Part shown: in pieces, positions 23,573 to 62,806 of the stretch
How positions within the stretch are numbered: position 1 is the stretch's first letter
Layout of the letters: every line of letters begins with the position of its first letter
NCBI GenBank assembly: GCA_018377855.1
Contig: JAGZYM010000005.1
Location: 15,567 to 79,566 of the forward strand
Length of the DNA: 64,000 nucleotides
Reading direction: 5' to 3'
Source of the DNA: Collinsella sp.
GTDB taxonomy: Bacteria; Actinomycetota; Coriobacteriia; Coriobacteriales; Coriobacteriaceae
The notes under the pieces: generated by a model
Told to the model about the DNA's origin: nothing
Databases searched by the model: none
The model's input: the letters and a program-made list of their open reading frames with translations, nothing else
Translations under genes and position numbers: made by a program

Positions 23573-23582
23573 GGTGGGAGAC

Positions 23583-27122
<3,540 letters not shown>

Positions 27123-27468
27123 ATACCCCTCTCCTCTCATATAGGTATACAGGCCCCGGCGATCGCCGGGATGTTGGCGTGATGGGATTTACGCTGTTGC
27201 TTCCAATCATCTGGCAGGCGGACTCAGCAGCAGGTACATGGCGTGGAGAGAAGGCATGCCGAGGCGAGGAGGGCTGCACGCGCTCCACAAGCCCAGCTAC
27301 CCGTCTTGCACATGACCGAGCGCCGCAAAGGCCGCATGCCGGATGCTCCCGGGCACGCCCCGGCGATGGGAAGCGCCCGCAACGGAAATCCGCATGCGGG
27401 TTTATTGTACCCCGCCGTTAAGTGTAATTTCGACAAATATAGGCGGGCGGTAAAGGTTTACCTCGGGT

Positions 27469-37998: not shown

Positions 37999-38243
37999 GC
38001 GTTCTCCTCCAACAAAAACACGCCGCTCAGAAGCGGCGCATTCATTCGAATCCATATTTGAGTGTATCAGCGAACCAAAAAGGTTGCGCAACGAATGGAC
38101 AAATTAAGGATGCGAGCGGAAGCATCCATGCGATAAGCGGACACGAAGCATCTTTGTTGCACAACAAACTCACAGTCGCACGGGGAAATTATGACTACCC
38201 CGTGCGTCGCGAGGAAAACATACGGCAGGAGCAGGCTCGCCAC

Positions 38244-40009: not shown

Positions 40010-42484
40010 CTACTCCACCGGCTTGAAGATGGTGGCCTGGCCAAAGACGCTGCGGATGAGGGCCTTGGCCTCGTCCTCGGTCTGCGGGATGCTCGGGGCT
40101 GCGCCCTGATGGCCGAAGGGGCTGCCAGCACCGGGATTGGATTCCCAGGGAGCGGCGGGGACGTCGTCGTTTGCAGAGGCTGCGGGTGCCACAGCAGCGG
40201 CCTTGGTCGCGGACGCCGCACCCGGCACGTCGAACGGGGGCAGATCGTCCCCGCCGGCATCGGCAGCAAAACCACCGACCATAGCATCGTCGTAGGGCAC
40301 CTGCTCGGATTCCCATGGCGCAGCCTGCGCAGGCGGCTGAGCCATGGGGACGGACGCGCGCTCGGGCGCTCGGGGCGCGGGCTCGGTCGGGAGCTTGCCC
40401 GTGGCAGGAGCACCGGCAGGGTTGTCGGAGCGCAGCCAAGGGGCCTTGGCCAGGTCGGATGACTTGGGCGCAGGCGCGGCAGCGGACTTGGGCGCGGGGA
40501 TCGGAGCAGCCGGTTTGGGCGCAGCGGGTTCAGGCGCCGACGGGGTCGGTGCCGCTACCGGCGCCGCTTTTGGCTGCGTCGCGCTGGCGCTCGAGGATGC
40601 AGGGGGCACCGAGGACACGGGTTGCGGGTCCGCAGATACCGCAGCCCGTGCAGATGGAGAATGCTCCTCATGTTGAGGAGCCGGCGTGCCACCCCCATCC
40701 AGGACATAGTCGACGGTACGACGACCGAAGACCGCGCAGACCGTCGGCAGGACCACCGACTGCGTATCGGCGCGACCGAGCATCTTGATGGCAAAAGTCG
40801 AACCCGCGGGGAACGAGACCGTGAGCTTGGAGCCGTCGTCGGCCGTGGCGCGGGCGTTGAGCAAAAGCCCTGCGTAGGAGGCCTGACGAGCCTTGACGCG
40901 CTCGACGACCTCGGCCCATTTGCGCTGGAGCTCGCCGGCGTCCTCAACCGCGGGGGTCTCGGCAGCACCGGCGGCGGCAACCTGGGCGGCGTTGTTGGGC
41001 TTGGACACCGACACGGTCGATGCAGCAGGCGCGGAAGCCGGAGCCGCAACGGGCTGAGGTGCAGGCGTTACAGGTCTGGGCGCCGGCGCAGGAGCCGCGG
41101 ACTTGGTCGCAGGCTGGGCAGCCGGAACAGCAGCGCCGCGGTCCCAAGGCATGCCGCCCTGATGCGCGGACGTAGCAGCGGGAGCGGCAGATGCCACAGG
41201 GGCAGCAGCCCGGGCACCCGAGATCAGCGTCGGCTGCTGGACAGCGGGTGCGGATGCAGCAGGCGCACTCGCTTGAGCAGCAGCCACGCTCGCCGGCACG
41301 GCGCCGTTGGCAACCATGGCCTCCAGGCGTGCCACGCGCTCGGCCAATGCCTCAATCGTTAAATCAGCCTCGGGACGTGCCAGACGCGTGCAGGCGATCT
41401 CGAGCACCAGGCGCACGTCGCTCGCACCCCTCATCTCCAGTGCGGCATCGTCGAGCACTGTCAGCACACGGGCCAGGCGGTCGGCAGGATGCTCGCCAAA
41501 GGCAGCGGCCTCGGCAGCAAGCGCCTCGGCCTGCTCGGAGCCGCCCTCAAACAGCTCGGCACGGGCACCGGCAACGCAGGCAACATACACGTCGCGCACA
41601 TGCGCCACCAAGTCACGCGTCAGCTCAAGCAGGTCATTGCCCTCCTCGACCTGTGCGCGAATGAGCCCATACAGCTCGGCGACATCGCGATCAGCAATGG
41701 CGCGCGCAAACTCGCCTAGAATCTGGTCCGAAACTTCGCCCAAAAGCGAACGGGCATCGTCCGCATGCACGGCGCCGTTGCCAAAAACGCTCAGCTGCTC
41801 CAGCGTGGAGAGCGCGTCGCGCATGCCGCCCTTGGCATGGCGCGCCACGATAGCCAGCGCCTCGTCGTCGTAATCGAAGCCCTCCTGCTCGCACACGTAT
41901 GCCAGGCGGCGCTCGATATCCTCGTTGCCGATGCGATGGAAATCGAAGCGCTGGCAGCGTGAGAGGATGGTCTCCAGAATCTTTTGCGGGTCGGTGGTGC
42001 ACAGCACAAAGATCACGTGCGCCGGCGGCTCCTCGAGCGTCTTGAGCAGCGCGTTAAACGCCGCCGTCGTGAGCATGTGGACCTCGTCGATGATATAGAT
42101 CTTGTACTTGCCACGCACCGGGGCAAAGTTGACGGAGTTGATGATTTCCTCGCGCACGTTGTCTACGCCGGTACGGCTTGCGGCATCGAGCTCGTAGACA
42201 TCGGGGTGGTTGCCCTCGGCGATGAGCTCGCATTCCTCACAGGTGCCGTCGGGCATGCAGCCGCTCGCACCCTCGGCGCGCGCCGCCTCGGCATTGCGAC
42301 AGAGCAGCGCCTTGGCAAGAATACGCGCCATGGTGGTCTTGCCCGTGCCGCGCGGTCCGCAGAACAGGTACGCATGGGACAGGCGCCCCTCGGTGATGGC
42401 GTGCTCGAGCGTCGAGACGATATGCTGCTGGCCCACCACGGAGTCGAAGGTGAGCGGGCGATACTTTCGGTACAACGATTCCAT
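40010..42484 (-). CDS. dnaX: DNA polymerase III subunits tau/gamma with long Pro/Ala-rich low-complexity C-terminal half
   Basis: MESLYRKYRPLTFDSVVGQQH...LFCGPRGTGKTT...; start at 42484 (ORF track 42958 is an antisense-overlapping extension). Confidence 0.9.
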   Translation of the reverse strand: MESLYRKYRPLTFDSVVGQQHIVSTLEHAITEGRLSHAYLFCGPRGTGKTTMARILAKALLCRNAEAARAEGASGCMPDGTCEECELIAEGNHPDVYELDAASRTGVDNVREEIINSVNFAPVRGKYKIYIIDEVHMLTTAAFNALLKTLEEPPAHVIFVLCTTDPQKILETILSRCQRFDFHRIGNEDIERRLAYVCEQEGFDYDDEALAIVARHAKGGMRDALSTLEQLSVFGNGAVHADDARSLLGEVSDQILGEFARAIADRDVAELYGLIRAQVEEGNDLLELTRDLVAHVRDVYVACVAGARAELFEGGSEQAEALAAEAAAFGEHPADRLARVLTVLDDAALEMRGASDVRLVLEIACTRLARPEADLTIEALAERVARLEAMVANGAVPASVAAAQASAPAASAPAVQQPTLISGARAAAPVASAAPAATSAHQGGMPWDRGAAVPAAQPATKSAAPAPAPRPVTPAPQPVAAPASAPAASTVSVSKPNNAAQVAAAGAAETPAVEDAGELQRKWAEVVERVKARQASYAGLLLNARATADDGSKLTVSFPAGSTFAIKMLGRADTQSVVLPTVCAVFGRRTVDYVLDGGGTPAPQHEEHSPSARAAVSADPQPVSSVPPASSSASATQPKAAPVAAPTPSAPEPAAPKPAAPIPAPKSAAAPAPKSSDLAKAPWLRSDNPAGAPATGKLPTEPAPRAPERASVPMAQPPAQAAPWESEQVPYDDAMVGGFAADAGGDDLPPFDVPGAASATKAAAVAPAASANDDVPAAPWESNPGAGSPFGHQGAAPSIPQTEDEAKALIRSVFGQATIFKPVE

Positions 42485-42599
42485 GGGTGCTCCCCCGGGT
42501 ATACTGAGTCTTGTTGCCGCGGCGGCCATGCGGTCGCACGGCATACTGCATCCATAATAACCCGTACGGCGAGCCCGCCGCGATAGGAGTCCAAAGAGC

Positions 42600-43316
42600 A
42601 TGGCAGACGCAGAGAGCAACCTCGTTCCCTCCGAAGCAGCCGACCAGGTCGAGGTCGCGCTCGAGGAGCAGGCCGCAGCCGACGACGGCATTCTGTACCT
42701 CAACGAGTACCAGTACGAAAACGACCTCGTCACCGACTTTGCGCGCCTGGTCGCCTCGCCCAGGCGTCGCGGCTCGCTGTATGTCGCCGCGGCAATTGCC
42801 GCGCTCATCGGCATCGGCATGCTGGTGGCCGGCGGCAACTGGATCAAGTTCGGCGTCGTCCTAATCGTATTCGGCGCCTTTTTGGCCTGGTGGAGCAAAA
42901 ATCTGCACCATACGCTCGCGCGCGACTTTATCGAAGCCGTCGAGGCAGACGAGTCCATGGGCGGCCGCTACCGCCGCGTCGCCGCCAACGAGGACGGCCT
43001 GATGGTCTGGGGCAAGAGCGGCAAGTCGCAGTTCTTCCCGTTTGAGAAGCTCGACCATGTACTCGACGGCGAGCGCATCTTTGTGGCCATGTTCGCCGAC
43101 CAGGGCGTGACGATCCCTAAGGACACCTTTGTGCGTGGTGATGCCGAGCAGTTTGGCTCCTTCCTCAAGACGCGCATCAACAAAAAGCTGCGCATCGAGA
43201 CCAAACGCAAAAAGATGAAGGCCGAAAAGGCCGCTGCCAAGGCCAAGCAGGAAAGCGAGCCTAAGAATGCAAAGGCCAAACAGCGCAAGCAGAAGAAGAA
43301 CAAGAAGAAGCGCTAA
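42600..43316 (+). CDS. YcxB-like membrane protein with Lys-rich C-terminal tail
   Basis: Two TM helices (AAAIAALIGIGMLVAGG / GVVLIVFGAFLAWW); C-terminal KKMKAEKAAAKAKQ...KKNKKKR. Confidence 0.55.
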   Translation: MADAESNLVPSEAADQVEVALEEQAAADDGILYLNEYQYENDLVTDFARLVASPRRRGSLYVAAAIAALIGIGMLVAGGNWIKFGVVLIVFGAFLAWWSKNLHHTLARDFIEAVEADESMGGRYRRVAANEDGLMVWGKSGKSQFFPFEKLDHVLDGERIFVAMFADQGVTIPKDTFVRGDAEQFGSFLKTRINKKLRIETKRKKMKAEKAAAKAKQESEPKNAKAKQRKQKKNKKKR

Positions 43317-43458
43317 GGCCAAGTCAGATAGGCCACCTCGCCCCGCTACCTTCACCATGCACCCGAGCGTGCTACACTAGCAGCATCTATGCCACCGCGA
43401 ACGGCTCGGCTCCGCGCCCGCCGCTCGCAAACGAACTTTAAACGCACGAGGGTTGGCC

Positions 43459-45312
43459 ATGCCGCTTTTCTCGCAACATACCGCCCGGTTCTCGCCGGAC
43501 GTTCCCTTGGAGGGCACCAGCTCTCGCGAGCTGCTCAAGCGGTTTCAGCCGCTCGAGACGCTCGCGACCGGCGGTTTTGGCTCCATCGAGATTTGCCGCG
43601 ACACGCACCTGCGCCGTCGCGTCGCCATTAAGCGCATCCCCCTCACAGGCGGTGCCGGCATGCCCGCCAGCGACATCATGGATGTCCTGCGCGAGGCACA
43701 CACCGCTGCCATGCTTCAACATCCCAATATCGTGCAGGTTATCGACTTTACGCACGATACCGCCTATGCCTACCTCGTCATGGAATATGTCGACGGCATG
43801 TCGCTCGCCGACTTTTTGCATCGCGTGGACGGCCATTCGCTCACCTTTGACGAGGCCGCGGCAATTGCCGACGCGCTGGGCCAGGCGCTCACCTTCGCCC
43901 ATAGCAACGGCGTGCTCCACCTGGATATCAAGCCCGCCAACGTGCTCATCGACCACTCGGGCAATGTAAAGCTCACCGACTTTGGCATGGCGCGGCTGTC
44001 GTCTGCCGGCGGCTTTGGCGGCTCGCGCGGCGGCACCATCGGCTACATGCCACCCGAGCAGCTCGACATCGAGACTGGCACGGTTGACGAGCGCGCCGAT
44101 GTCTTTGCCCTCGCCTGCGTGATCTACGAGGGACTGTGCGGCAGCGCCCCCTTTATGGCCGCCACGCCCGCCGACTCGCTCGGCCGCATCATCGGCGGTG
44201 CCACCTACCCCAGCGAGCTCATCCCGCACTTTCCCCCGGGAGCCGAGGCTGCGCTCATGAGCGCCCTCTCCCCCATGCCGCAAGACCGCCCCAGCAGCAT
44301 CGAGGCATTTTGCGACCAGCTGCTCGCCGGCTTGGGCAGCGTGCGCGAGGGCCGTCGCAGCCTAGAGCAGATGGTGGGCGAGCTGTCGGATGACGAGCGC
44401 ACGGCAGACGATATCGAATCGCTGCCCTATGAGGACGACACCATCGAGGTCGACCCCGCACTCGGCTGGGCCGGCACGCGCTGGGGCCACGCGCGCGATT
44501 ACACCATGCGCGCCATCTCGGCGCTAACGTGCGGCGCCTTTAGCTTTTTGATCATGCAGACGGCTGGCGTCGCGGCGCTTCCCGGACTTATTGCCGCGGC
44601 CATCGCGATTGGGGCGGCCGCCGGCCTGGCCCCGCAGATTGGCTCGGCTATCTCGGCCGTGGGCTTTTTGGTACTTATGGCCAACGCCACCATGCAGGCG
44701 CAGGGCATCCTGTCGATGCTGCCCGTCGCGGTGCTCTTTGCCGCCACCATGTCCGGTTGGTGGATCGCCTGGGGCCGCACCGAGGCCGCCGCGAGCGCTG
44801 CGCTCACCTGCGCGGTGGCACTTGGCTGTCTAACGGGCGACGTCCTCCTTGCCGCCGGGGTCGCCACCGGCATCGCGGCCTTTTGGCTCGGCCCGGCAAG
44901 CGCCGCGGCCGCCACGGGGATGGGCGCGCTTTTTGGCCGCCTGGCTACGGTTGCGCTTTCCGCCGGAGGCGTGCTGGGGCTCGGCGATGTTGCCGCAGCG
45001 CTGGGAGACATGCTCTTCTGGGCTGCCGTCGTGCTTGTCGCGGCGACAGCTGCACTGACATCTCTGCTGCTCAACGTCCATGCCAAGCGTGCCGAGCAGG
45101 GCTCGAACCTGACTGCAATCGCTGCCATCGCCGGCTGCGGAATAGGCTCCGCGGCGTCGCTCTGTCTTGCACACCATATGGAAATTGCCAGCCTTGCGGC
45201 CGCGGTCGTCGTCAAGGCGGCGGTTGCGGGAACCCTATCCTCTATAATTGTTGGGATATGCCTATATTTGCTCGGATACCAAAGAACCTATACGGAGAGT
45301 GATCTTTCGTGA
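43459..45312 (+). CDS. Ser/Thr protein kinase with C-terminal polytopic membrane domain (about 8 TM helices)
   Basis: GGFGSIEICRD..., HLDIKPANVLID, DFGMA; C-terminal 280 aa Ala/Gly-rich hydrophobic; ATG 43459 after GAGGG. Confidence 0.85.
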   Translation: MPLFSQHTARFSPDVPLEGTSSRELLKRFQPLETLATGGFGSIEICRDTHLRRRVAIKRIPLTGGAGMPASDIMDVLREAHTAAMLQHPNIVQVIDFTHDTAYAYLVMEYVDGMSLADFLHRVDGHSLTFDEAAAIADALGQALTFAHSNGVLHLDIKPANVLIDHSGNVKLTDFGMARLSSAGGFGGSRGGTIGYMPPEQLDIETGTVDERADVFALACVIYEGLCGSAPFMAATPADSLGRIIGGATYPSELIPHFPPGAEAALMSALSPMPQDRPSSIEAFCDQLLAGLGSVREGRRSLEQMVGELSDDERTADDIESLPYEDDTIEVDPALGWAGTRWGHARDYTMRAISALTCGAFSFLIMQTAGVAALPGLIAAAIAIGAAAGLAPQIGSAISAVGFLVLMANATMQAQGILSMLPVAVLFAATMSGWWIAWGRTEAAASAALTCAVALGCLTGDVLLAAGVATGIAAFWLGPASAAAATGMGALFGRLATVALSAGGVLGLGDVAAALGDMLFWAAVVLVAATAALTSLLLNVHAKRAEQGSNLTAIAAIAGCGIGSAASLCLAHHMEIASLAAAVVVKAAVAGTLSSIIVGICLYLLGYQRTYTESDLS

Positions 45313-46319
45313 ACTTCCTGAACATCTTCGAGGACCACGTGGCCGGCATCTTCGGTGCCACCCGTGCCCCGTTCTCCTTTAAGAAGCTTGCCAAGCAGGC
45401 CGCTCGCGACATGGAGGATCAGACTCTGGTGATCAACGGCGTCAACACCGCGCCGGCACTCTATACCATCCTGATCGCCGCCGACGACGATCCCATGCTC
45501 GCCCCGTTCTACCCCGAGCTTTCGCGCGAAGTCCGCGAGTTTGTGAAAGCACAGGCCGAAAAGCGCCGCTATGTGTTTGTCGGCGAACCCCTCGTTCGCT
45601 TTATGATCGACCCGCAGCTGCGTGCCGGTAAGTTCTCGGTCTTTGCCGAGAACGTCGATGCCCCCACGCTCGGTCGTCTGTACGAGGAAGAGCGCGCCTA
45701 CCAGAATGGCCTGGGCCAGAACAACTCGGCCGCAAGCCGCGCCGCCAGCGCTCCCCGCGCCGGCAAGCAGCAATTCGCCGCTCCGCAGCAACAGCACCCC
45801 GCCGCCATGCCCCAGCAGCCGACGCCCCGCGCCGTCGCTCCCGACCCGCTCGCCGTGGCCGATCCCTTTGCGCCCAACGTCCCCGACCCCGCCGCCGCGC
45901 CCATCCCCGTGCCGCAGACCGTCTCTCGTGACGCCCTCGCCGGTATGGGCGGAGCCGCCGCAACCGGCGCCGCCGTGGGCCTTGGCGCCGCGGCCGGTAT
46001 TGCCTCCAACATGGCGAGCACCCGCGCCCCGCAGCGCCCGCTCGCCCAGCTCGTCGACGTAGTGAGCGGCGAGAGCCACAGCATCACTTCCGCGCAGGTG
46101 ACCATCGGTCGCGAGCGTTCGGTTTCGGACATCGCCCTGCGCGACCCCAACGTGTCGCGCCGTCACGCCCAGCTCACCTTTACCGGTTCGGACTGGTCGA
46201 TCGAGGACCTCAATTCCACCAACGGCACGCTCGTCAACAACCGCCGCATCACGCGCTGCCCGCTGCGCAACGGCGATCTGCTGACGTTTGGCCTGAGCAC
46301 CTTTGAATTTAGGGGATAG
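45309..46319 (+). CDS. fhaA: FhaA-like protein (DUF3662 N-domain + C-terminal FHA)
   Basis: N-terminus MNFLNIFEDHVAGIFG...; C-terminal ...VSRRHAQLTFTGSDWSIEDLNSTNGTLVNN; GTGA overlap with the kinase. Confidence 0.8.
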   Translation: MNFLNIFEDHVAGIFGATRAPFSFKKLAKQAARDMEDQTLVINGVNTAPALYTILIAADDDPMLAPFYPELSREVREFVKAQAEKRRYVFVGEPLVRFMIDPQLRAGKFSVFAENVDAPTLGRLYEEERAYQNGLGQNNSAASRAASAPRAGKQQFAAPQQQHPAAMPQQPTPRAVAPDPLAVADPFAPNVPDPAAAPIPVPQTVSRDALAGMGGAAATGAAVGLGAAAGIASNMASTRAPQRPLAQLVDVVSGESHSITSAQVTIGRERSVSDIALRDPNVSRRHAQLTFTGSDWSIEDLNSTNGTLVNNRRITRCPLRNGDLLTFGLSTFEFRG

Positions 46320-46325
46320 TCGCTT

Positions 46326-46742
46326 ATGAACATCGATATCGTCCTTTTTGCAGGCCGCATCGTCCTGGTTGCCCTGCTCTACATCTTCCTGTTCGCCGTC
46401 ATGAAAACCGGCGTGGGACTCGTACGCGGCCAGCGCCGCGACTCCGCTATCTGGACGATCGATGTGGACAAGGGTCCGCGCGGCATCCGTGGCATCCATG
46501 TAGACATGCTCGGCCCCGTCATCGTGGGCCGCTCGCCGTCCTCGGACATCTGCATCAACGAACCGTTTGTCTCGGCCTCGCACGCACGCTTTTCGCTGCA
46601 GGGCCCGGCACTCATCATCGAAGACCTCAACTCGCTGAACGGCACGCTCGTTAACGGCCGTCAGCTGGTGGAGCCCGCAACGCTGCGCGAGGGCGATGAA
46701 GTCCAGATTGGCGACGTGGTCATGAAGGTGAACCGTCGATGA
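46326..46742 (+). CDS. fhaB: FhaB/FipA-like small FHA protein with N-terminal TM helix
   Basis: IVLVALLYIFLFAVM TM; ...VSASHARFSLQGPALIIEDLNSLNGTLVNG. Confidence 0.75.
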   Translation: MNIDIVLFAGRIVLVALLYIFLFAVMKTGVGLVRGQRRDSAIWTIDVDKGPRGIRGIHVDMLGPVIVGRSPSSDICINEPFVSASHARFSLQGPALIIEDLNSLNGTLVNGRQLVEPATLREGDEVQIGDVVMKVNRR

Positions 46743-48637
46743 TCGACGAGGAGAACAAGTCCGCAACCATGCCCGAGACGCCAACTGCCCCCGCAGCTGC
46801 GCCGGCTCATGCCGCTCCGGCGCGCCCTGCGACCGTGGAGCCCGAGGACACCGTGTTCTCCCTGCCTCTTTCGCATGTAACTCAAGAATATCCGGCACTC
46901 GTCGATGACGAGGACGCCGACACCGAGCAGCTCGACGCCCCCATCGGCGCGCACGCTGCCGAGCAGTCCGCGGAACCGGAGGCAACGCCCGCACCGGCTC
47001 ACTTTGCCGAGCCCGTCGCCGAGGCGATTAACGAGAGCGCTGCCGTGTTTGCCGCCCCCGAGCCTGCCGCGCCGGTATTCCCCGTCGCCCCGGCAAGCGA
47101 GGCGGCACCCGCATCCGCAACGCCTGCCGAAGTCGATCAGCCCGTTGCCGCGCCCGCCGCAGCTCCCGAGTCCTCCGCTCAATCCCAGAGCACGCCCGCG
47201 CCGTCGCACTTTGCGACGCCCGAGCCGACGGCCGTCGAGCCGCAGCAGGACGGCGATCCCGCCGACCGCGTAACCGAAGATCTCAACCTTCCGGACGTCT
47301 CCGACGCCGAGTCGGGCAACGATGCCGACACCGTCTCCCCCGGCGACACCGCCGAAATCGATGTCGCCGCCGTGGAGGCAAAGCTCAAAGATCCCGGCTC
47401 GACCATGAGCTTCGAGCCGCTGACCGACGAGCGCATCGAGACCGACTCGACCTACGACGCCGGCACCACCACACAGCTTATGTGGGGCGCCCGCTCCGAC
47501 GTCGGATGTGTGCGCCCGCACAATGAGGACTCCTATCTGGTGCAGTCGCCGCTCTTTTGCGTGTGCGACGGCATGGGAGGACACGCCGCCGGCGAGGTGG
47601 CATCCTCCATCGCCGTCGAAACCATCGCCAAGACGGCGCCGCAGTCCGCCGACGCCGCGCGCCTGGCCGCAGCCGTCGAGGCCGCCAACGCCGCCGTGAT
47701 CGAGGCCGCCCTCAACGGCCTGGGCAAACCCGGCATGGGATGTACGGCCACCTGCGCCTACATCGAAAACGACACGCTCGCCATCGCCCACGTGGGCGAC
47801 TCGCGCGCCTACCTGCTCCACGAGGGTACGCTCATCCGCGTGACCCGCGACCATTCCTACGTGGAGGAGCTCGTGGATGCCGGCGAGATTACGGCCGACG
47901 AGGCCCGCGTCCACCCCAACCGCTCGGTCATCACCCGCGCGCTGGGCTCGGATCCCGCTATGTATGCCGACCACTTTACCCTGCACATCGAGGAAGGCGA
48001 CCGCCTGATTCTGTGCTCCGACGGTCTTTCGAGCATGATTCCCGATAGCGATATCGAGAACATCGCTACGCAGTCCTCGAGCGCACAGATCTGTGTCGAC
48101 AACTTGGTGGACGCGGCGCTCGCCGCCGGCGGCCACGACAATGTGACCGTGGTGGTCGTCGACCTGGTCGACGACGGCGTCATGCGCGAGGCAAAACGCG
48201 TCCGACGCCGCAATGTCACCATCGCCACCGTCTTGGCCCTTGTCTTTGTGCTGATAGCAGGCATCTGGGCATACACGGGCGTCACCGGCTCCTATTACTT
48301 GGGAACCTACCACGGCAATGTCGCCGTCTGGCGCGGCCTGCCCGGCAAGACGCTCGGGGTCGAGCTCCACTGGCTCGAAAGCGAAACCAGCATCAAGCTG
48401 TCCGACCTGCCCGAAGACACGCAAAACCGCCTGAAGGCAGGCATTCCGCAAACGAGTGTCGACGATGCGCAGGACACCATTTCCAAGTACCGCCATCAGA
48501 TTGACGAAGAGCAGACCCGTCAGGTGATTGACGCGCAAACGATTCGCGACAACACCAATCAGGAATCCACCTCCGAGTCAGATTCCGAGAAAACCGCCGA
48601 ACAGTCAGCCGAGGCCGAAGCCTCCGATAAGAATTAG
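46739..48637 (+). CDS. pstP: PP2C-family Ser/Thr phosphatase (PstP-like) with about 240-aa Pro/Ala/Glu-rich N-terminal extension and C-terminal TM anchor
   Basis: VGCVRPHNEDSY...CDGMGGHAAGEVAS...; ATGA overlap with fhaB; true start may be internal (for example 47408). Confidence 0.8.
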   Translation: MIDEENKSATMPETPTAPAAAPAHAAPARPATVEPEDTVFSLPLSHVTQEYPALVDDEDADTEQLDAPIGAHAAEQSAEPEATPAPAHFAEPVAEAINESAAVFAAPEPAAPVFPVAPASEAAPASATPAEVDQPVAAPAAAPESSAQSQSTPAPSHFATPEPTAVEPQQDGDPADRVTEDLNLPDVSDAESGNDADTVSPGDTAEIDVAAVEAKLKDPGSTMSFEPLTDERIETDSTYDAGTTTQLMWGARSDVGCVRPHNEDSYLVQSPLFCVCDGMGGHAAGEVASSIAVETIAKTAPQSADAARLAAAVEAANAAVIEAALNGLGKPGMGCTATCAYIENDTLAIAHVGDSRAYLLHEGTLIRVTRDHSYVEELVDAGEITADEARVHPNRSVITRALGSDPAMYADHFTLHIEEGDRLILCSDGLSSMIPDSDIENIATQSSSAQICVDNLVDAALAAGGHDNVTVVVVDLVDDGVMREAKRVRRRNVTIATVLALVFVLIAGIWAYTGVTGSYYLGTYHGNVAVWRGLPGKTLGVELHWLESETSIKLSDLPEDTQNRLKAGIPQTSVDDAQDTISKYRHQIDEEQTRQVIDAQTIRDNTNQESTSESDSEKTAEQSAEAEASDKN

Positions 48638-48653
48638 AAAGGGAGTGCCGCTT

Positions 48654-51524
48654 ATGAGTCGCCGCAACACCGAACTGCTCTTGCTCATCGCCTCGGCGTT
48701 CCCCGTCATCCTGCTCTATGCGATGTACGTGCTCGCCGCGGGTGCCACGATTTCCTTTGAGACGCTCGCCGTGCCGATCGGCCTGTTCGCCGCCTTCGCC
48801 GCGGCGCATATCGCCGTGCGCATCCTGGCGTCCGGCGCCGACCCCGCCATCCTGCCCATCGTCTTTGTGCTCTCGGGCATCGGCATCACATTCGTGACGC
48901 GCCTGGCCCCCGACCTCGCCATCTCGCAGCTCATCATCTTGTTTGTCTCGGTAGCGCTCATGGTGGGAACGCTCGCACTGGTCAAGAACCTCGACGTTGT
49001 CATGCGCTACAAGTACACCTTTGGCATTATCGGCATCATCCTGCTGATGCTGCCGATCTTTATCGGCACCACGATCTCGGGCTCCAAGCTGTGGATTCGC
49101 ATCGCGGGCTTCACCATCCAGCCCGGCGAGTTCGCCAAGGTCTTCATCGTCTTGTTCCTGGCAGGCTATCTGGCCGAGAACCGCGAGCTGCTCTCCATCT
49201 CCAACCGCAAGATCCTGGGCCTCAAGATTCCGCGCTTCCGCCTGCTGCTGCCGCTGTTTGCCGTGTGGGGCGTGTGCCTGCTCATCGTCGTCTTCGAACG
49301 CGACCTGGGCTCGGCCGTCCTGTTCTACACCATCTTTTTGCTGATGCTCTATGTTGCCACGGGACGCTTTTCGTACGTCATCATCGGCCTTGCGCTGCTG
49401 GCCGTTGGAGCCGTGGGTGCCTACAAGTTCCTGTCGCACGTGCAGGTGCGCTTTCAGGTCTGGGTCGATCCGTTTAAGGACGCCCAGGGTCAGGGCTACC
49501 AGATCGTACAGTCACTTTACTCGCTGGCTGACGGCGGCCTGGTTGGCGTCGGCATCGGCAATGGCATGGCAAACAACATCCCCGTCGTCGAGTCCGACTT
49601 TATCTTCTCGGCCATCGGCGAGGAAATGGGCCTTTTGGGCGGCGGCGCCGTGCTCATCCTGTTTATGCTTTTTGCCGTGCGTGGCCTCACCACGGCAGCC
49701 CGCGCTAAATCCGACCTCGCTGCCTTTAGCGCCACGGGCCTTACGGCCGCCATCAGCTTCCAGGCCTTCTTGATCGTTGGCGGCGTAACCCGCCTGATTC
49801 CGCTGACCGGCGTCACCCTGCCCTTTATGAGCCAGGGCGGCTCCTCGCTGCTGGCGAGCTTCATCATCGTCGCGCTCCTGCTGCGCGCCGGTGACGAGGC
49901 GACCGGACGCGAGGCCGAGCTTACCGGCACCGGCACCATGGCCGCCATCACCGATGATCAGGTCGCATCTGCCGCCGCCCCGACGGGCACGCGCTTTGCC
50001 ACCTCGTCTTCCTACGGCAGCGGCAGCCATTCCGTCGGCTCGCGCATGCGCCGTCGCCTGCTCGACACGCCTGAATCCGGTGTGCTCGGCCGCGTTGCGC
50101 TCGCCAACCGTCTAACCCGCGCGGTGCTCGCCTTTACGGCGCTGTTCGCCATCCTTATCGGCAACCTCACCTATGTCCAGGTCATTAAGGCCAAGGACTA
50201 TCAGGACATGCCGACCAACAACCACACCATCGCCCGCTCCAAGTACATCCAGCGCGGCTCCATCATCACGTCCGACGGCGTGACGCTGGCCGAGTCGCTG
50301 CAGCAGGAGGACGGCACCTACGTACGCTCCTACCCCAACGGTAACCTGGCAGCGCACGTGGTTGGCTACGTGAGCCAGCAGTATGGCACCACCGCCATCG
50401 AGAGCGTCATGAACGACACGCTCACCGGTTCTAAGGACTACTCCAGCTGGAACAACGCCATCGCGTCGCTCGCGGGCCAGACCCAGCCGGGCAACACCGC
50501 CAAGCTCACCATCGACTCGCGCATCCAGACGGCGGCCGAGCAGGCACTCAAGGGCTTTAAGGGCGCTGTAGTGGTCATCGACCCGCGTACCGGCGCGGTT
50601 CTCGCATGTGCCAGCTCGCCCACATACGACAACACCAACATCGATGCTCTGCTGCAGACGGGCGGCGGCGAGGACGGCTCCATGTACAATCGCGCCATGG
50701 ACGCGCTGTACACGCCGGGCTCAACGTTTAAGGTCGTTACGCTTTCCGCGGCACTCGAGACCGGTACCGCCAGCCTTACCAGCACCTACCAGGCGCCCGG
50801 CTCCATGGACATCGGCAACGCACCGGTCACCAACGATGCCAACGAGAGCTACGGCACCATCAGCCTGCAGCAGGCCTTTGCCGTGTCCTCCAACGTCGTC
50901 TTTGGCCAGGTGGCAAACGAAGTTGGCGCAAACACGCTCGTGCAGTTTGCCAACGCCTTTGGCTACGGCCAAAAGCTCGGCCAGGACCTGACCTCCGCGG
51001 CCTCCATCATGGCCGACCCGTCGCTCATGACCGAGTGGGAGACCGCCTGGGCCGGCGCCGGCCAGCCTGTCGGCATGGACCACACGCCCGGCCCGCAGAC
51101 CACCGTCATGCAGAACGCCGTGATTGCCGCCGCCATCGCTAACAGCGGCGTGGTCATGGACCCGTACTTTGTAGCCCAGGTACTCGCCCCGGACGGAACC
51201 GTGGTCAAGACCACGCAGTCCCGCTCGCTTGGTCAGGCCGTCAGCTCCGCCACGGCCGACCAGGTCAAGCAGGCCATGCTTGCCGTCGTCCAGTCCGGCA
51301 CCGGCACCGATGCCCAGATCCCCGGCGTCAAGGTCGCCGGCAAGACCGGCTCGGCCGAGACCGGCGGCACCAACGTCAACTCGATGTTCGTTGGCTTTGC
51401 ACCCTACGATTCACCCACGGTCGCCATCTCGGTGGCCTTGGAGGATTACGACCAACACGACGTCGAGGCGGCCAAGATCGCCGGCATCGTCCTGACTGCG
51501 GCACTCGCCGCCCAGGGAGCGTGA
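48654..51524 (+). CDS. fused SEDS glycosyltransferase (RodA/FtsW) and class B penicillin-binding protein transpeptidase in one 956-aa ORF
   Basis: N-terminal 10-TM FtsW/RodA domain then PBP dimerisation and transpeptidase motifs STFK, SSN, KTGS; no stop between domains; ATG 48654 after AAGGGAG. Confidence 0.8.
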   Translation: MSRRNTELLLLIASAFPVILLYAMYVLAAGATISFETLAVPIGLFAAFAAAHIAVRILASGADPAILPIVFVLSGIGITFVTRLAPDLAISQLIILFVSVALMVGTLALVKNLDVVMRYKYTFGIIGIILLMLPIFIGTTISGSKLWIRIAGFTIQPGEFAKVFIVLFLAGYLAENRELLSISNRKILGLKIPRFRLLLPLFAVWGVCLLIVVFERDLGSAVLFYTIFLLMLYVATGRFSYVIIGLALLAVGAVGAYKFLSHVQVRFQVWVDPFKDAQGQGYQIVQSLYSLADGGLVGVGIGNGMANNIPVVESDFIFSAIGEEMGLLGGGAVLILFMLFAVRGLTTAARAKSDLAAFSATGLTAAISFQAFLIVGGVTRLIPLTGVTLPFMSQGGSSLLASFIIVALLLRAGDEATGREAELTGTGTMAAITDDQVASAAAPTGTRFATSSSYGSGSHSVGSRMRRRLLDTPESGVLGRVALANRLTRAVLAFTALFAILIGNLTYVQVIKAKDYQDMPTNNHTIARSKYIQRGSIITSDGVTLAESLQQEDGTYVRSYPNGNLAAHVVGYVSQQYGTTAIESVMNDTLTGSKDYSSWNNAIASLAGQTQPGNTAKLTIDSRIQTAAEQALKGFKGAVVVIDPRTGAVLACASSPTYDNTNIDALLQTGGGEDGSMYNRAMDALYTPGSTFKVVTLSAALETGTASLTSTYQAPGSMDIGNAPVTNDANESYGTISLQQAFAVSSNVVFGQVANEVGANTLVQFANAFGYGQKLGQDLTSAASIMADPSLMTEWETAWAGAGQPVGMDHTPGPQTTVMQNAVIAAAIANSGVVMDPYFVAQVLAPDGTVVKTTQSRSLGQAVSSATADQVKQAMLAVVQSGTGTDAQIPGVKVAGKTGSAETGGTNVNSMFVGFAPYDSPTVAISVALEDYDQHDVEAAKIAGIVLTAALAAQGA

Positions 51525-51656
51525 TGCCCGTGATCGAATCGGACACCCGGGGCGCGCCGCGGCCTAAGGGCTAGCGGCAACGCGCCACACGGCCCCAGCG
51601 GCCACATCGTAGGTACTACACACATCGTTGAGCGAATAGTTATGTTAGGAGCAGGA

Positions 51657-53594
51657 ATGGAACAGAGGGTCCTCGGGGGAAGATACCTCCTCAAGGATAA
51701 GGTGGGAACAGGCGGCATGGCGACCGTCTACCGTGCACAGGACCAGGTCCTCGACCGCACGGTAGCCGTCAAGATTATGCTGCCGCAGTATGCCGGCGAC
51801 GCAACCTTCGCCGCGCGCTTTAAGCAGGAGGCCCAGGCAGCAGCCGGTCTCTCCTCCCCCTATATCGTGGGCGTCTACGATTGGGGCAAGGACGGCGACA
51901 CCTATTACATCGTCATGGAGTACCTGCGCGGCACCGACCTTAAGAGCGGCATCAAGAGCCACGGCGCCCTCGACCCCAAGAAGGTCGCCCAGATCGGCTC
52001 GCAGATCAGCTCCGCGCTTTCGGTCGCCCACAAGCACGAGATCATCCACCGCGACATTAAGCCGCAGAACATCATGGTGCTGCCCGACGGCAACATCAAG
52101 GTGATGGACTTTGGCATCGCGCGCGCCAAGAACAGCCACCTCACGCAAGACAACAACGTGCTGGGAACCGCCCACTACGTCAGCCCCGAGCAGACCCGCG
52201 GTCAGGACCTCGGCCCCACCTCGGATATCTACTCGCTGGGCGTCGTCATGTACGAGTGCGCCACCGGTCGCGTCCCCTTTGACGGCGACGACGCCATCTC
52301 AGTTGCGCTCAAGCAGGTAAACGAACTGCCGGTTCCGCCGAGCCAAGTCAACTCCGGCGTCGATGCCGATCTGGAGCGCATCATCCTCAAGTGCATGGAA
52401 AAGGACCCGGCGAACCGCTTCCAGACGGCAGACGAGCTGCGCCAGGTGCTCAACAACTACCTGTCCGGCCGCGCCGTCAACGTCTCCGAGCCCACGCGCA
52501 TCATTGGCGCCGCGGGCGACCTGGGCGCTACCAAGACCCGTGAGCTGTCTGACTCCACGCGCGCTATGGTTCGCCCCGTATCGGGCGTAAGCGGACAGAC
52601 CAACCCCCGCAGCGCCGTCTCGGGTTCCACCGGTTCCTACGAGGTCGATCAGCCCAAGTCCAACAAGAACAAGATTATCGCCGCCGTAGTCGCCGCAATC
52701 GCCGTGGTTGGCGTTGTGGTGGCCTTCGCCACCGGGCTCTTTGGGGGCGAGCAGGTTACGGTGCCCGATGTGCTTAACAAGGACCAGCAGACCGCTATCG
52801 AGCTGATCAAGGAGGCCGGCCTTGAGGTCGGAACTGTCGACCAGAGCTATAACGACGATGTCGACGAGGGCAAGGTTGCCGAGCAGACCCCCAACGGCAA
52901 CACTAAGAAGCCCAAGGGCTCCAAGGTGAACCTGGTGATCTCCAAGGGCCCCAAGCCCTCCGAGAAAGTTGAGGTTCCGCAACTCGTCGGCCTAACCAAG
53001 GACCAGGCCGAGGCCGCGCTGGCAAGCGTGGGCCTGAAGGGCAACGCAACCGAGGAGGCCAACGAGGCCGACGAAGGCCAGGTCTTTGAGCAGGGCACTG
53101 ATGCCGGCAAGGAAGTCGAGAAGGGCACGACCATCTCGTATAAGGTCTCCAGCGGTCCTGACACCACCTCCGTCCCCGATCTGACCGACATGACCGAGGC
53201 CCAGGCACGCAACGCTCTCGACATGGCTGGCTTTGGCGTCGACGTGAGCTACCAGGAAAACGACTCGGTTACCGAGGGCACCGTAATTAGCTGGAACCCT
53301 AGCGGCAAGCAGAAGCCCGGTGCCACGATCACCGTCGTCATCGCCAAGAAGTCCGGCAAGGCCAGCGTCCCGGGTAACCTGTACGGCAAGAGCATCTCCG
53401 CCGCCGTCACCGCGCTCAACAACGCCGGTTTCTACAACATCGCATTCTGCGACCAGAACGGCAACCCCGTAAGCGGTAACGAGAACGCCACCGTTACGGG
53501 CGTCTCCCCCACCGGCAAGCAGTCCACCGACAGCACGATCACGCTGACGGTTTCCATCTCCGGCTCCGGCGACGACTCCGAGTCCAGCAACTAA
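51657..53594 (+). CDS. pknB: Ser/Thr protein kinase PknB-type with 4 extracellular PASTA domains
   Basis: GGMATVYRA...HRDIKPQNIMV...DFGIA; TM; four PASTA repeats. Confidence 0.9.
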   Translation: MEQRVLGGRYLLKDKVGTGGMATVYRAQDQVLDRTVAVKIMLPQYAGDATFAARFKQEAQAAAGLSSPYIVGVYDWGKDGDTYYIVMEYLRGTDLKSGIKSHGALDPKKVAQIGSQISSALSVAHKHEIIHRDIKPQNIMVLPDGNIKVMDFGIARAKNSHLTQDNNVLGTAHYVSPEQTRGQDLGPTSDIYSLGVVMYECATGRVPFDGDDAISVALKQVNELPVPPSQVNSGVDADLERIILKCMEKDPANRFQTADELRQVLNNYLSGRAVNVSEPTRIIGAAGDLGATKTRELSDSTRAMVRPVSGVSGQTNPRSAVSGSTGSYEVDQPKSNKNKIIAAVVAAIAVVGVVVAFATGLFGGEQVTVPDVLNKDQQTAIELIKEAGLEVGTVDQSYNDDVDEGKVAEQTPNGNTKKPKGSKVNLVISKGPKPSEKVEVPQLVGLTKDQAEAALASVGLKGNATEEANEADEGQVFEQGTDAGKEVEKGTTISYKVSSGPDTTSVPDLTDMTEAQARNALDMAGFGVDVSYQENDSVTEGTVISWNPSGKQKPGATITVVIAKKSGKASVPGNLYGKSISAAVTALNNAGFYNIAFCDQNGNPVSGNENATVTGVSPTGKQSTDSTITLTVSISGSGDDSESSN

Positions 53595-59652: not shown

Positions 59653-61848
59653 TCACTCGTCCTGCTGAGCCGCGGGCCCATCGTTCGGCGTGGCCTGCCT
59701 GCGCGGGGCATGCCGGGAATTGATGTAGTCGTATGCGTAGGCGATCTCCGTGACGGGGACCTCCACGTGGTAATGGGCGGAAATGTCAGAGAAGCTCGTG
59801 CGGAATGCCTCGACGAAATCGTTGTGTTCATTGGCGAAGCGCTGCTCGTCTGCGTAGTTCTCGATGGGGCTTCTGGTCACGAGGCGCTCCACGAGACAAC
59901 ACAGGTGCACGTAGAGCCCCATGCTCACACGAGCGCCAATCACGTCTCCGGTGAGCTGCTGGAGCCGCTCTGCGGCACTCTCGATTTCGCCGAAGAGCTT
60001 GTTGGGGTTAAGGATTGTGATGGACTCGACCACGTTCCTGAGGGTCATGTTCTTGACGAGATTCTGGTGGAACGTGCGCAAGCTGTCAGCGTCGAGCAAG
60101 CGTGCGAAGGCGCGGTCTATCTGGGCCGTTCCTTCGCCGGCGATGAGTTCCTCGAGCGAAATGAACGGGACTCCGTCGGCGTGCGGATTGTCCGTACCGA
60201 TGACCGAGCGCACGTTGTACTGGGAGAAGGCGGCATCCTCAGATCCGTTATTGGCGAGCTGCCGCCAGTCAACGGCGACAAGCCGCGCGGGGGACTCGCC
60301 AGGCAGGCTCTGCGCCACGAGATCGCGGATCCGCGCAGCTGCGTCAAGTCCGCCTTCGGAGCAGAAGACAATCGCGTCCGGTCGGGCGTTGCGCGCCACG
60401 ATGTGATAATTACAGGTGCAAGCTGCCGCAGCATCGTCGAGAACCTCTCGCACGGAGCGACCCGCGATAAGTCCGGCGCCAACCTCCACCGCAAGGCCGG
60501 TAGAGGCGTTGTTTATGATGCCGAGCGTCATGCCGGAGGTGGATTCCAGACTCTTATAAATATCCTGGAGCGATCCCATGTCCACGAGGATGACGACCTC
60601 GTCTGCGTAGGAGAAGCGGTCGATGATTTGCTGAAGAGGAACAGCGACGTCCGTAACCTTCTGGTCGTAGGGCATGTCGATGGCCTCGAAGACCCTCGTG
60701 TCAAGAATCCGATTGGCGGCGTCGGCGATGCTCGTGGCGGTCGAGTAGCCATGACTGAGGACGATACCGACGCTCCGACGACGCTTAGACGGGTCGAGTG
60801 CGAGTGCCGCATGCGCAAGGACGAGCAGACACGTGAGATCGTCGAGTGCGATGCCGAGCGTGGCCTTGAGTTCATCAGCGATGCAGGCGCAGACAGTAAC
60901 GGCAAAGCGGTTGCGCTGGGCCACGACGCCGCGCATGCCGGAAAGCTCGCTTGCATGGGAGCTCTTCCAACGCGAGAGGCTTGCGGGCGGCCACAGCTGG
61001 AGGCAGATGCCCTGGGCGATTAGATGCGAGCTCTTTCGGGACAAATCGATCGAGTAGAGTTCGTTCACGGAAGTGACGACGCTGTCGGCGATCTGCTCGT
61101 ATGCGTCGGACTTCGAGCGGCCCGGGTTTTGCCCGAACGCCAGGTAGTCCTCGAGGTCGCGGGCTCGCTCCACCAGCTGAGCGCTGCACGCGCCCCCATC
61201 AAGCGTGCCTTCGCGATAGCTCTCGTATGGCTCCAGCATGGCGTCGAGTACATGCCGTGCGCGGTCGTCCGCCTGGCTTTGGATGCTCCGGGTGGTGTCG
61301 ATGAGCTGCATGTCGTTCTCGCTGCGCTCGAGTGCGGAGCCGGCAAGGATTGCGGAGGGAAGCTGGTAGGTGCGAATCTCCAGGCTGTCACCCTTCGTGT
61401 CTAGATAGGCCTCGGCGCAACAGTTGGTGATGCAGTCGCGCAGGCCGCGTACGTTCTCCTCGAAGTTGGTGCCGGCGAGGGCTCGGAAGGCTCCGCGACT
61501 TATGAGGATGTCGCGTCCTATGCGTCGGCCCTCCTCCTTGAGGAAGTGGAGAGTCAGTTCCTCACGCTCCTCCTGGGTGCGCTCGCGCAGAGACGGCACC
61601 TGGGCGGACATGGGGATGCGACGCGTGAGGCTGCGGCACTCGGTACTGTCTGCCTCGTTTGAGGTGGCAAAGATAAGGCGCACAGCAGGGGGCTGGCATG
61701 GCGCCCGCCTGTGCGGAGGCCCACTCCAAGAGCGCGTCCTGGGCAGCGGGTGAGAGGGCGTCGACGTCCTTGAGATAAACGATGCCGCCGCTCGCCCGAT
61801 CTGCAGGCCCGCCATCTGCGCACAGGTCGTGAGTGAGCGCGCGGGCAT
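59653..61848 (-). CDS. C-terminal portion of a LevR-like sigma-54-dependent activator (end of AAA+ domain, PRD, EIIA-Man-like, PRD); frame-shifted relative to 61562-62404
   Basis: VRLIFATSNE..., GNVRGL-type segment, EIIA-Man-like SVGIVLSHGYSTATSIADAANRIL. Confidence 0.6.
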   Translation of the reverse strand: MPARSLTTCAQMAGLQIGRAAASFISRTSTPSHPLPRTRSWSGPPHRRAPCQPPAVRLIFATSNEADSTECRSLTRRIPMSAQVPSLRERTQEEREELTLHFLKEEGRRIGRDILISRGAFRALAGTNFEENVRGLRDCITNCCAEAYLDTKGDSLEIRTYQLPSAILAGSALERSENDMQLIDTTRSIQSQADDRARHVLDAMLEPYESYREGTLDGGACSAQLVERARDLEDYLAFGQNPGRSKSDAYEQIADSVVTSVNELYSIDLSRKSSHLIAQGICLQLWPPASLSRWKSSHASELSGMRGVVAQRNRFAVTVCACIADELKATLGIALDDLTCLLVLAHAALALDPSKRRRSVGIVLSHGYSTATSIADAANRILDTRVFEAIDMPYDQKVTDVAVPLQQIIDRFSYADEVVILVDMGSLQDIYKSLESTSGMTLGIINNASTGLAVEVGAGLIAGRSVREVLDDAAAACTCNYHIVARNARPDAIVFCSEGGLDAAARIRDLVAQSLPGESPARLVAVDWRQLANNGSEDAAFSQYNVRSVIGTDNPHADGVPFISLEELIAGEGTAQIDRAFARLLDADSLRTFHQNLVKNMTLRNVVESITILNPNKLFGEIESAAERLQQLTGDVIGARVSMGLYVHLCCLVERLVTRSPIENYADEQRFANEHNDFVEAFRTSFSDISAHYHVEVPVTEIAYAYDYINSRHAPRRQATPNDGPAAQQDE

Positions 61849-62404
61849 CGTCTGCGTAATGCGAGCAGTCGATGCTCACAAGCTTGGCTTCCTGCTGCAG
61901 GACGCCGACGTTCTTGCCGTATTCGAGGGCAAGTTCGGCGAGTAGACCCTTGCCGGTTCCCGAGGCGCCACAGAGCAGGATGGGCAGGCCAGCTGGCGGG
62001 TACTTGAGCGCGGCGCAGAGCTGGCTGATGCAGGGCGCAAGGCTCAGCTCGTGACCGATTGCGCGGTCGAAGTCGAGTCGCTCGCCGTTTCCGAGCGTGG
62101 CGAAGAGCTGCTCGACCGAAGGGTAGGTGCTACGCTCAATGCGAGACTGGAAGAAGCGTTCGAGGGAGCGGCGGTGGAAGTAGCACACCGGTCGTGCCCC
62201 TGCTTTCACCACGAGGCCAGCGCGCACGAGCTCGTTGAGATACTGACTTGCCAGGCTGCGCGAGATGGCGAGCGAGTCGGTTATAGATGCCGTGGTGAAG
62301 TGGTCGAGACGGTTCTGGATGCGCCCGCCCCGCGTGCTGCCAAGCTCGCGCGTGATGCGATCGAGGTAGGCAAGCAGGTCTTTCTGTGTCTCGGGGATGT
62401 TCAT
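61562..62404 (-). CDS. N-terminal portion of the LevR-like activator (wHTH + sigma-54 AAA+ Walker A GASGTGKG); the reading frame ends because of an apparent 1-nt frameshift at a G5 run (61687-61691)
   Basis: MNIPETQKDLLAYL...; ATG 62404 after AGGAGG; LLEWAS should continue into ...VRLIFATSN, which lies in the +1 frame. Confidence 0.6.
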   Translation of the reverse strand: MNIPETQKDLLAYLDRITRELGSTRGGRIQNRLDHFTTASITDSLAISRSLASQYLNELVRAGLVVKAGARPVCYFHRRSLERFFQSRIERSTYPSVEQLFATLGNGERLDFDRAIGHELSLAPCISQLCAALKYPPAGLPILLCGASGTGKGLLAELALEYGKNVGVLQQEAKLVSIDCSHYADDARALTHDLCADGGPADRASGGIVYLKDVDALSPAAQDALLEWASAQAGAMPAPCCAPYLCHLKRGRQYRVPQPHASHPHVRPGAVSARAHPGGA

Positions 62405-62518
62405 GCGGCTGGTCCTCCTTTCGTCCCACACCTTACGGGCGGGGTGGTGCTCGGGACGGGTTGGCACCCGCGTTTTGTCACGGGCACGTGAACTTCGGCA
62501 CTCCATAATACATCTGTA

Positions 62519-62806
62519 GTGGCATATGGCGACTTCTCGACACCTGCGCTCGACACAGCGAGCGGCAACAGCGCTGTCCGCCGAGCGCCTCACGGGCGTA
62601 TCCCAACCGTAGGAGTGCGCTTTGCCACCTTTGACTGCCTCCCTGTCGGCAAGCGGCTCGCCGTTCGCTCCGTCTCTGACCACATCGCTCGAATCGACTC
62701 TGCCGCCGGCGCTGTGGTGGCCGTCGTGCCCGCAAAGGTCATCAAGCAGGCCGACGAGGTCACCGCGGGCAAGGTCTCCCTCGTCGACGCACTCAGGAAT
62801 CTGTAG
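62519..62806 (+). CDS. hypothetical small protein (95 aa)
   Basis: High GC3 ORF followed by hairpin GCGAGGCC...GGCCGCCTCGC right after the TAG stop. Confidence 0.25.
   Translation: MAYGDFSTPALDTASGNSAVRRAPHGRIPTVGVRFATFDCLPVGKRLAVRSVSDHIARIDSAAGAVVAVVPAKVIKQADEVTAGKVSLVDALRNL

Follow-up and report, generated by a model that had tools for sequence, protein, structure and literature searches.

The analysed window is a 64,000-nucleotide stretch of Collinsella sp. contig JAGZYM010000005.1 and contains, on its forward strand, a six-gene locus in the order kinase-fhaA-fhaB-PP2C-fusion-PASTA kinase. The fifth of these genes, a natural fusion of rodA and pbpA, encodes a SEDS glycosyltransferase (GTase) followed by a penicillin-binding protein of class B (bPBP) in one open reading frame (ORF), which runs without interruption from an ATG at 48654 to a stop codon at 51522-51524. 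A preliminary description of this DNA had reported a single 956-residue SEDS-bPBP ORF at 48654-51524. Both the coordinates and the reading hold. The protein matches three Pfam domains, all above their cut-offs, in the order FTSW_RODA_SPOVE (residues 66-414), PBP_dimer_2 (534-614), and Transpeptidase (637-936). The natural fusion is real, is ancestral to the whole class Coriobacteriia, and is already known from databases, structures, and papers. The features of the gene and its locus are collected in Table 1.

The longest form of the fusion ORF begins at a TTG at 48528. Judged from the sequence, the ATG at 48654 is the biologically sensible start, because an AAGGGAG motif lies 8 nt upstream of it and the stop codon of the PP2C gene precedes it by 16 nt. 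The N-terminus so obtained, MS(S)RRNTE, is the common start of homologues. An identical protein, deposited independently, is present in NCBI under MBS6606910.1, with the title 'FtsW/RodA/SpoVE family cell cycle protein [Collinsella sp.]'.

The SEDS module matches PF01098 with 248.9 bits (cut-off 26.4, E 1e-73) over profile positions 13-352 of 356. Hydrophobicity and the AlphaFold2 (AF2) model predict 12 helices, comprising the ten canonical helices and two extra ones at the N-terminus. The SEDS domain had previously been described as having ten transmembrane (TM) helices; this needs correction to 12 predicted TM helices, with the bPBP anchor as the 13th. Pfam and PDB alignments of the module begin only near residue 66-73. 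Ahead of the QPxE motif lie five hydrophobic helices, compared with three in Thermus thermophilus RodA. The two extra helices are also found in unfused actinobacterial RodA proteins (~460 aa) and, because they leave the N-terminus cytoplasmic, do not change the SEDS topology.

The putative catalytic residue D315 takes the alignment position of D255 in T. thermophilus RodA (6bar), of the Asp of the HTDFIF motif in Escherichia coli RodA (8tj3_B), and of the equivalent Asp in Pseudomonas aeruginosa FtsW. In SEDS family members this catalytic Asp belongs to a (T/S)DF(I/V)F motif in the loop before TM8. Catalysis by E. coli RodA has been attributed to Asp262, and E114 and K117 of the same enzyme, the equivalents of E159 and K162, have been functionally tested (PMC10449877). 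In 61 diverse fusions, whose alignment columns average 30% identity, E159, D217, R266, and D315 are invariant and K162 is at least 90% conserved. A 131-sequence alignment of fused homologues gives the same pattern, with D315 again invariant.

The bPBP module begins with a membrane anchor whose hydrophobicity peaks at residues 490-508, within a helix that AF2 places at residues 473-511 (pLDDT 90-96 over 481-510). The single TM anchor expected of a class B PBP is therefore present, although it is internal here owing to the fusion. The PbpA-type N-terminal domain matches PF21922 with 85.9 bits (cut-off 27, E 2e-24), while the transpeptidase (TPase) domain matches PF00905 with 191.1 bits (cut-off 22.1, E 3e-56). 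These matches, together with the motif positions, confirm the dimerisation and transpeptidase domains and the STFK, SSN, and KTGS motifs recognised in the preliminary description. S690, K693, S745, N747, and K897-T-G are each at least 90% conserved in the 61 fusions, and the 131-sequence alignment gives the same result. AF2 predicts a confident two-module model of the full protein (mean pLDDT 86.8, pTM 0.70), with disorder confined to the linker.

The two modules are connected by a cytoplasmic linker of ~70 residues (approximately 415-486), which is Arg-rich and predicted to be disordered, with AF2 pLDDT below 50 over residues 417-475. The SEDS-side end of the linker has the consensus RAGDxxTGxE(T/A)E, in which T417 is found in 103 of the 131 aligned sequences and is invariant in the Collinsella group. 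T426 and T472 are likewise conserved in Collinsella. The anchor-side end has the consensus (S/T)GLLGRxALxRRL and runs into the anchor helix. In unfused actinobacterial RodA, a similar LLxRxSD motif follows the last helix and is succeeded by a variable Arg/Pro/Thr tail. One unfused PbpA begins with MSRRVAIVARLV and then a TM helix, an arrangement that can be likened to GRVALANRLTR and the anchor of the Collinsella fusion.

Table 1. Features of the rodA-pbpA fusion gene and its locus; positions are those of the window.
Feature	Coordinates	Strand	Basis or remark
Fused rodA-pbpA gene	48654..51524	+	956 aa + stop; ORF call, Pfam domains
Shine-Dalgarno-like AAGGGAG	48639..48645	+	Read from sequence; 8 nt 5' of ATG
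SEDS glycosyltransferase module, residues 1-414, 12 predicted TM helices	48654..49895	+	Pfam PF01098, hydrophobicity, AF2, structure alignment
Two additional N-terminal TM helices (predicted), residues 1-58	48654-48830	+	Precede canonical SEDS fold
E159-F-A-K162 of QPxExAK SEDS motif	49128..49139	+	Conservation, alignment to RodA/FtsW structures
Codon of D315, putative catalytic Asp	49596..49598	+	Structure alignment, conservation
SEDS-side conserved linker segment, R411-AGDEATGREAELTGTG-427, includes T417	49884..49934	+	Alignment
Collinsella-specific low-complexity insertion, residues 428-473 (~45)	49935..50072	+	Variable length, always in frame
Conserved pre-anchor segment ESGVLGRVALANR, residues 474-486	50073..50111	+	Resembles N-terminus of unfused PbpA
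bPBP membrane anchor helix, residues ~487-511	50112..50186	+	Hydrophobicity, AF2
PbpA-type N-terminal PBP_dimer_2 domain, residues 534-614	50253..50495	+	PF21922
D,D-transpeptidase domain, residues 637-936	50562..51461	+	PF00905 and motifs
S690-T-F-K	50721-50732	+	SxxK motif
S745-S-N	50886-50894	+	SxN motif
K897-T-G-S	51342-51353	+	K(T/S)G motif
Ser/Thr protein kinase, start codon uncertain	43453..45312	+	Pfam Pkinase 5e-47
FhaA-like protein (FhaA_N and FHA domains)	45309..46319	+	Pfam
FhaB-like small FHA protein	46326..46742	+	Pfam
PstP-like membrane PP2C phosphatase	46739..48637	+	Pfam; ~250-aa low-complexity N-terminal extension
PknB-like kinase, three PASTA repeats	51642..53594	+	Pfam

The fusion is conserved in relatives of the Collinsella strain. 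Eighty reference loci, one genome per species, were examined over ±8 kb around the fusion; cultured isolates are among them, and the sampling takes in Collinsella aerofaciens, numerous other Collinsella species, and Coriobacteriaceae. A single continuous in-frame tblastn high-scoring segment pair spans residues 1-956 in 77 of the 80, and the remaining three loci are interrupted by contig ends. The ORF lengths in the reference loci are 2811, 2841, 2859, 2865, or 2868 nt, every one a multiple of 3. The best 120 homologues listed share 73-98% identity and the same three domains, many of them on long independent contigs, and are 905-978 aa in size except for one of 807 aa and one of 1146 aa (84% of the query matched). 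The best 120 profile-search matches listed are all fused with the same architecture. Even the deep-branching Coriobacteriia genome Es71-Z0120 (L083) encodes a 912-aa fusion, 48% identical to the Collinsella protein, in the same six-gene locus.

In other actinobacterial classes rodA and pbpA stay separate, separate genes are described in PMC6554272, and the closest unfused SEDS protein among the matches listed, at 44% identity, comes from Ilumatobacteraceae. A missed stop codon or frameshift, introduced in assembly or sequencing, might on this account have joined two genes in the Collinsella contig. This is exceedingly improbable given that the match is single and in frame in 77 independent assemblies, cultured isolates among them, that indels are all multiples of three, that the fusion is kept down to 48% identity with the same synteny, and that the exact sequence has been separately deposited. 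The artefact reading was dropped on the continuity of 77 out of 77 complete loci and on their ORF lengths. At the junction, none of these loci has a stop codon or frameshift, and the orthologues in Coriobacteriia are fused as well, not split. The natural covalent SEDS-bPBP fusion of the preliminary description is thereby supported, in an actinobacterial FHA/PP2C/Ser-Thr kinase cell-wall locus.

Similar fusions are found well beyond Collinsella. A library of 1.84 billion representatives was searched and the best 150 representatives of 50%-identity clusters were considered; 82 of these 150 are fused, giving at least 82 fused clusters, all in the SEDS-to-PBP order. The 82 fused representatives measure 719-1101 aa, their identity to the Collinsella protein drops to ~25-30% per half, and named carriers include Atopobiaceae, Armatimonadota, and Lachnospiraceae. 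Members of 599 aa in the 90%-identity cluster that holds the Collinsella protein, considered as truncated or split alleles, were rejected as such, being the neighbouring PP2C phosphatase. Since this cluster mixes the fusion with the unrelated PP2C, its 32,607 members overstate the fusion count.

The Lachnospiraceae SEDS-PbpA-type fusion (L081, 8001-10844; L082, 7643-10486) shares ~29% identity with the Collinsella protein. Its gene follows zapA and one for a peptidase U32, murJ and ruvAB are close by, and the setting is not an FHA/PP2C/kinase locus. Its position directly downstream of zapA and the peptidase U32 gene hints that this fusion is division-linked, and perhaps an independent fusion. 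A rough neighbour-joining tree of the SEDS domain has fused and unfused sequences intermixed, with at least nine parsimony changes and long branches; the tree is weak, and some of its 'unfused' entries are contig-end fragments. The intermixing gives a weak suggestion that fusion or fission took place more than once. Within the Coriobacteriia, the Es71-Z0120 fusion in the same locus and the conservation among relatives indicate, from sequence comparison, that the fusion is older than the diversification of the class. The two linker ends look like the RodA tail and the PbpA head of the unfused proteins, and the simplest origin would be a read-through from the tail of rodA into the start of an adjacent pbpA, before the Coriobacteriia diversified.

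We propose that the gene very probably encodes one membrane protein that joins both halves of a SEDS-bPBP synthase, and that this protein is orthologous to the individual RodA and PbpA proteins of the actinobacterial pstP operon. The N-terminus would be cytoplasmic, and the 12 SEDS helices would bring the chain back to the cytoplasm. The 13th helix, the presumed ancestral PbpA anchor, would then carry the chain across the membrane, so that the PbpA pedestal-like domain and the transpeptidase domain lie on the outside. By analogy with other members of the family, the SEDS module likely polymerises lipid II into glycan strands via D315, and the tethered transpeptidase likely cross-links these strands via S690. 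The covalent link would enforce 1:1 stoichiometry and co-localisation of the two activities, whose probable regulators are the Ser/Thr kinases, PP2C phosphatase, and FHA proteins encoded at the same locus.

Several points weigh against this proposal. The long disordered linker in the AF2 model could be a proteolytic processing site. The protein scores 196.8 bits against NCBIfam rodA_shape (TIGR02210; cut-off 336.7) and 246.6 bits against NCBIfam ftsW (TIGR02614; cut-off 337.5), and, because both equivalog cut-offs are missed, the label 'RodA' is taken from pstP-operon synteny. Synteny is likewise the sole basis for choosing between elongation and division. The higher ftsW score, the identification of P. 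aeruginosa FtsW as the best SEDS structure match, and the proximity of the Lachnospiraceae fusion to zapA would all favour a division-specific FtsW-FtsI-like synthase instead of a RodA-PbpA elongation synthase. We regard such a role as unlikely in Collinsella, however, since both scores fall under cut-offs of ~337 bits, a PbpA-type domain (PF21922) marks the PBP half, whose nearest match beyond the fusion clade is Mycobacterium tuberculosis PbpA, not FtsI, and the genes form the pstP-rodA-pbpA-pknB cluster instead of the dcw cluster. Further, another Coriobacteriales species is reported to have separate FtsI/FtsW and MrdA/RodA pairs besides its fusion (PMC12516126).

Cleavage in the linker, or internal initiation, would yield two proteins from the fused ORF. 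The length and predicted disorder of the linker are compatible with this, and M465 lies ahead of an RRRLL...TM segment resembling an old PbpA N-terminus. Nevertheless, neither M429 nor M465 is conserved (position 465 is Met in six and Leu in six Collinsella-group sequences), the segment containing M465 is wholly absent in most Coriobacteriia, and none of the internal ATG or GTG codons has a Shine-Dalgarno-like motif ahead of it. The frame is also kept across all variants, which would be unneeded if the halves were translated separately. Production of two proteins is thus quite improbable, and an internal translation start in the linker, lacking both a Shine-Dalgarno-like motif and a conserved Met, was rejected. 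Degenerate PBP or SEDS modules occur in other families, and one module of the fusion might by the same token be catalytically dead and act only as a scaffold or regulator. There is very little chance of this, as D315, E159, K162, S690, K693, S745, N747, and K897-T-G are present and are conserved in distant fusions, and the orthologous Atopobium parvulum TPase domain is acylated by beta-lactams in crystals. A single chain with two putatively active modules is the reading we retain.

The cytoplasmic linker may be a phospho-regulated switch and not merely a passive tether, an idea that we offer tentatively and consider rather unlikely to be correct. T417 (in RAGDxxTGxE), along with T426 and T472, could be phosphorylated by the co-encoded kinases; FhaA or FhaB would recognise the linker phospho-Thr, and PP2C would reset it. 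If this is true, kinase signalling would be coupled directly to the polymerase/transpeptidase junction. M. tuberculosis RodA is said to be phosphorylated on its C-terminal tail at Thr463, though a text search gave no confirmation.

The genes around the fusion belong to a well-documented actinobacterial linkage of pstP, rodA, pbpA, and a PASTA kinase gene (PMC6554272). The preliminary description compared the locus with the canonical fhaA-fhaB-pstP-rodA-pbpA-pknA-pknB cluster. The linkage of FHA, PP2C, SEDS, PbpA, and PASTA kinase genes agrees with this comparison, whereas the order does not: the second kinase gene is upstream of fhaA instead of separating pbpA from pknB, and rodA and pbpA form a single gene. 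The end of the upstream kinase gene overlaps the start of fhaA by 4 nt. No second SEDS or bPBP paralogue was found by tblastn within the window, and no sigma-70-like promoters were found in a promoter/terminator scan of the locus in this high-GC organism. The PP2C phosphatase carries an Ala/Pro/Glu-rich N-terminal extension of ~250 residues (46739-47500, +) ahead of its catalytic domain. The whole phosphatase is 632 aa long here, compared with 599 aa in other Collinsella and 374 aa in the deep-branching Coriobacteriia genome. The overlap of the PP2C ATG with the FhaB stop codon (ATGA) suggests that the long form is translated.

Elsewhere in the window, a LevR-like regulator is apparently split into two overlapping ORFs on the reverse strand (59653-61848 and 61562-62683), one with a weak sigma-54 activator domain and the other with EIIA-man and PRD domains. 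This could be a frameshift, a pseudogene, or merely an over-extended ORF call. A 1223-aa ORF at 23511-27182 (+) has no Pfam match at 1e-5 and lies antisense to a 1185-aa ORF (23583-27140). The 614-aa protein encoded at 35252-37096 (-) gives a weak, stretched protein-kinase match (3e-16, residues 59-401) and is perhaps a divergent kinase or a pseudokinase; a 332-aa ORF overlapping its gene (37093-38091, -) has no Pfam match. DnaX, the clamp-loader tau/gamma protein, is encoded at 40010-42958 (-) and is unusually long at 982 aa, with ~175 residues ahead of its ATPase domain.

The novelty of the fusion implied by the preliminary description is not supported, as such proteins are present in NCBI, in the PDB (as excised TPase domains), and in two papers (PMC12516126 and PMC10449877). 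A 2025 survey describes a class of 'bifunctional bPBP', of which 117 were counted in InterPro (PMC12516126). It defines the class by a GTase and a TPase in one ORF of >800 aa, a description that fits the Collinsella protein. The survey illustrates a 931-aa member from Senegalimassilia faecalis (Coriobacteriales; its Fig. 5B), which, like the Collinsella protein, comes from the Coriobacteriia, combines a FtsW/RodA/SpoVE GTase with PBPA_dimer and TPase domains, and has Ser/Thr kinase and phosphatase genes as neighbours on its flanks. It belongs to another family and genus and is shorter than the 956-aa Collinsella protein, a difference that the ~45-residue Collinsella linker insertion probably explains in part. 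Also described is a 947-aa GTase-pedestal-TPase protein from Rhodococcus jostii RHA1, another natural SEDS-to-bPBP fusion in the Actinomycetota (PMC12516126), which differs in having a canonical pedestal domain and in adjoining mreB, not lying in the FHA/PP2C/kinase locus. The existence of natural single-ORF SEDS-PBP fusions was already noted in 2023, with the Rhodococcus RHA1 genome cited (PMC10449877).

Engineered fusions have the same polarity, running from the SEDS C-terminus through a cytoplasmic linker to the N-terminal TM helix of the bPBP. The structure of E. coli RodA-PBP2 was solved from a RodA-TSGSGSGS-PBP2 fusion (PDB 8tj3), which is active in GTase assays and binds bocillin (PMC10449877). 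Synthetic fusions complement deletions of both genes, according to the account that PMC10449877 gives of Bacillus subtilis SpoVE-SpoVD (Fay, Meyer and Dworkin 2010). These constructs differ from the Collinsella protein in being synthetic, in having an 8-residue linker instead of ~70 residues, and in using a canonical pedestal bPBP (PBP2, SpoVD) instead of a PbpA-type one. The separate RodA (Rv0017c) and PbpA (Rv0016c) of M. tuberculosis share the locus type, the PbpA-type N-terminal domain, and the TPase fold, but are two genes and two proteins, with the second kinase placed elsewhere. Class A PBPs likewise combine a polymerase and a transpeptidase in one polypeptide, although their polymerase is an extracellular, moenomycin-inhibited GT51 domain and not a polytopic SEDS protein (PMC10449877).

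Parts of close homologues have been crystallised. The TPase domains of the 'peptidoglycan glycosyltransferase' of A. parvulum (4jbf, 4n1x, 4qjg, 4r0q, 4r1g, 4r23, 4r3j, and 4ra7) share 52-54% identity with Collinsella residues ~510-952 (TM-score 0.93-0.95), and the 'D,D-transpeptidase domain of peptidoglycan glycosyltransferase' of Eggerthella lenta (4mnr) shares 44%. These domains were crystallised in 2013-14, in each case as the soluble domain only, and several A. parvulum entries are beta-lactam acyl-enzyme complexes. The next-nearest structure is M. tuberculosis PbpA (31% identity, TM-score 0.87). No full-length natural fusion is among the top Foldseek matches, the best query-normalised TM-score being 0.42.

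Natural SEDS-bPBP fusions are independent evolutionary evidence for the obligate 1:1 action of the two enzymes, and make handy single-chain targets for structure determination and inhibitor studies on a non-model gut Actinomycetota species. The obligate-pair argument has already been made and used, in the RodA-PBP2 structure and the TPase crystals, and the Collinsella locus is therefore a well-documented example and not a new concept. The additions of the present analysis are modest, namely the conserved linker motifs with a conserved Thr, the Collinsella insertion, and the count of 12+1 helices in this clade. The remaining value of the locus lies in the conserved linker motifs, which, set in an operon of kinase, FHA, and phosphatase genes, suggest a regulatory site that could be tested.

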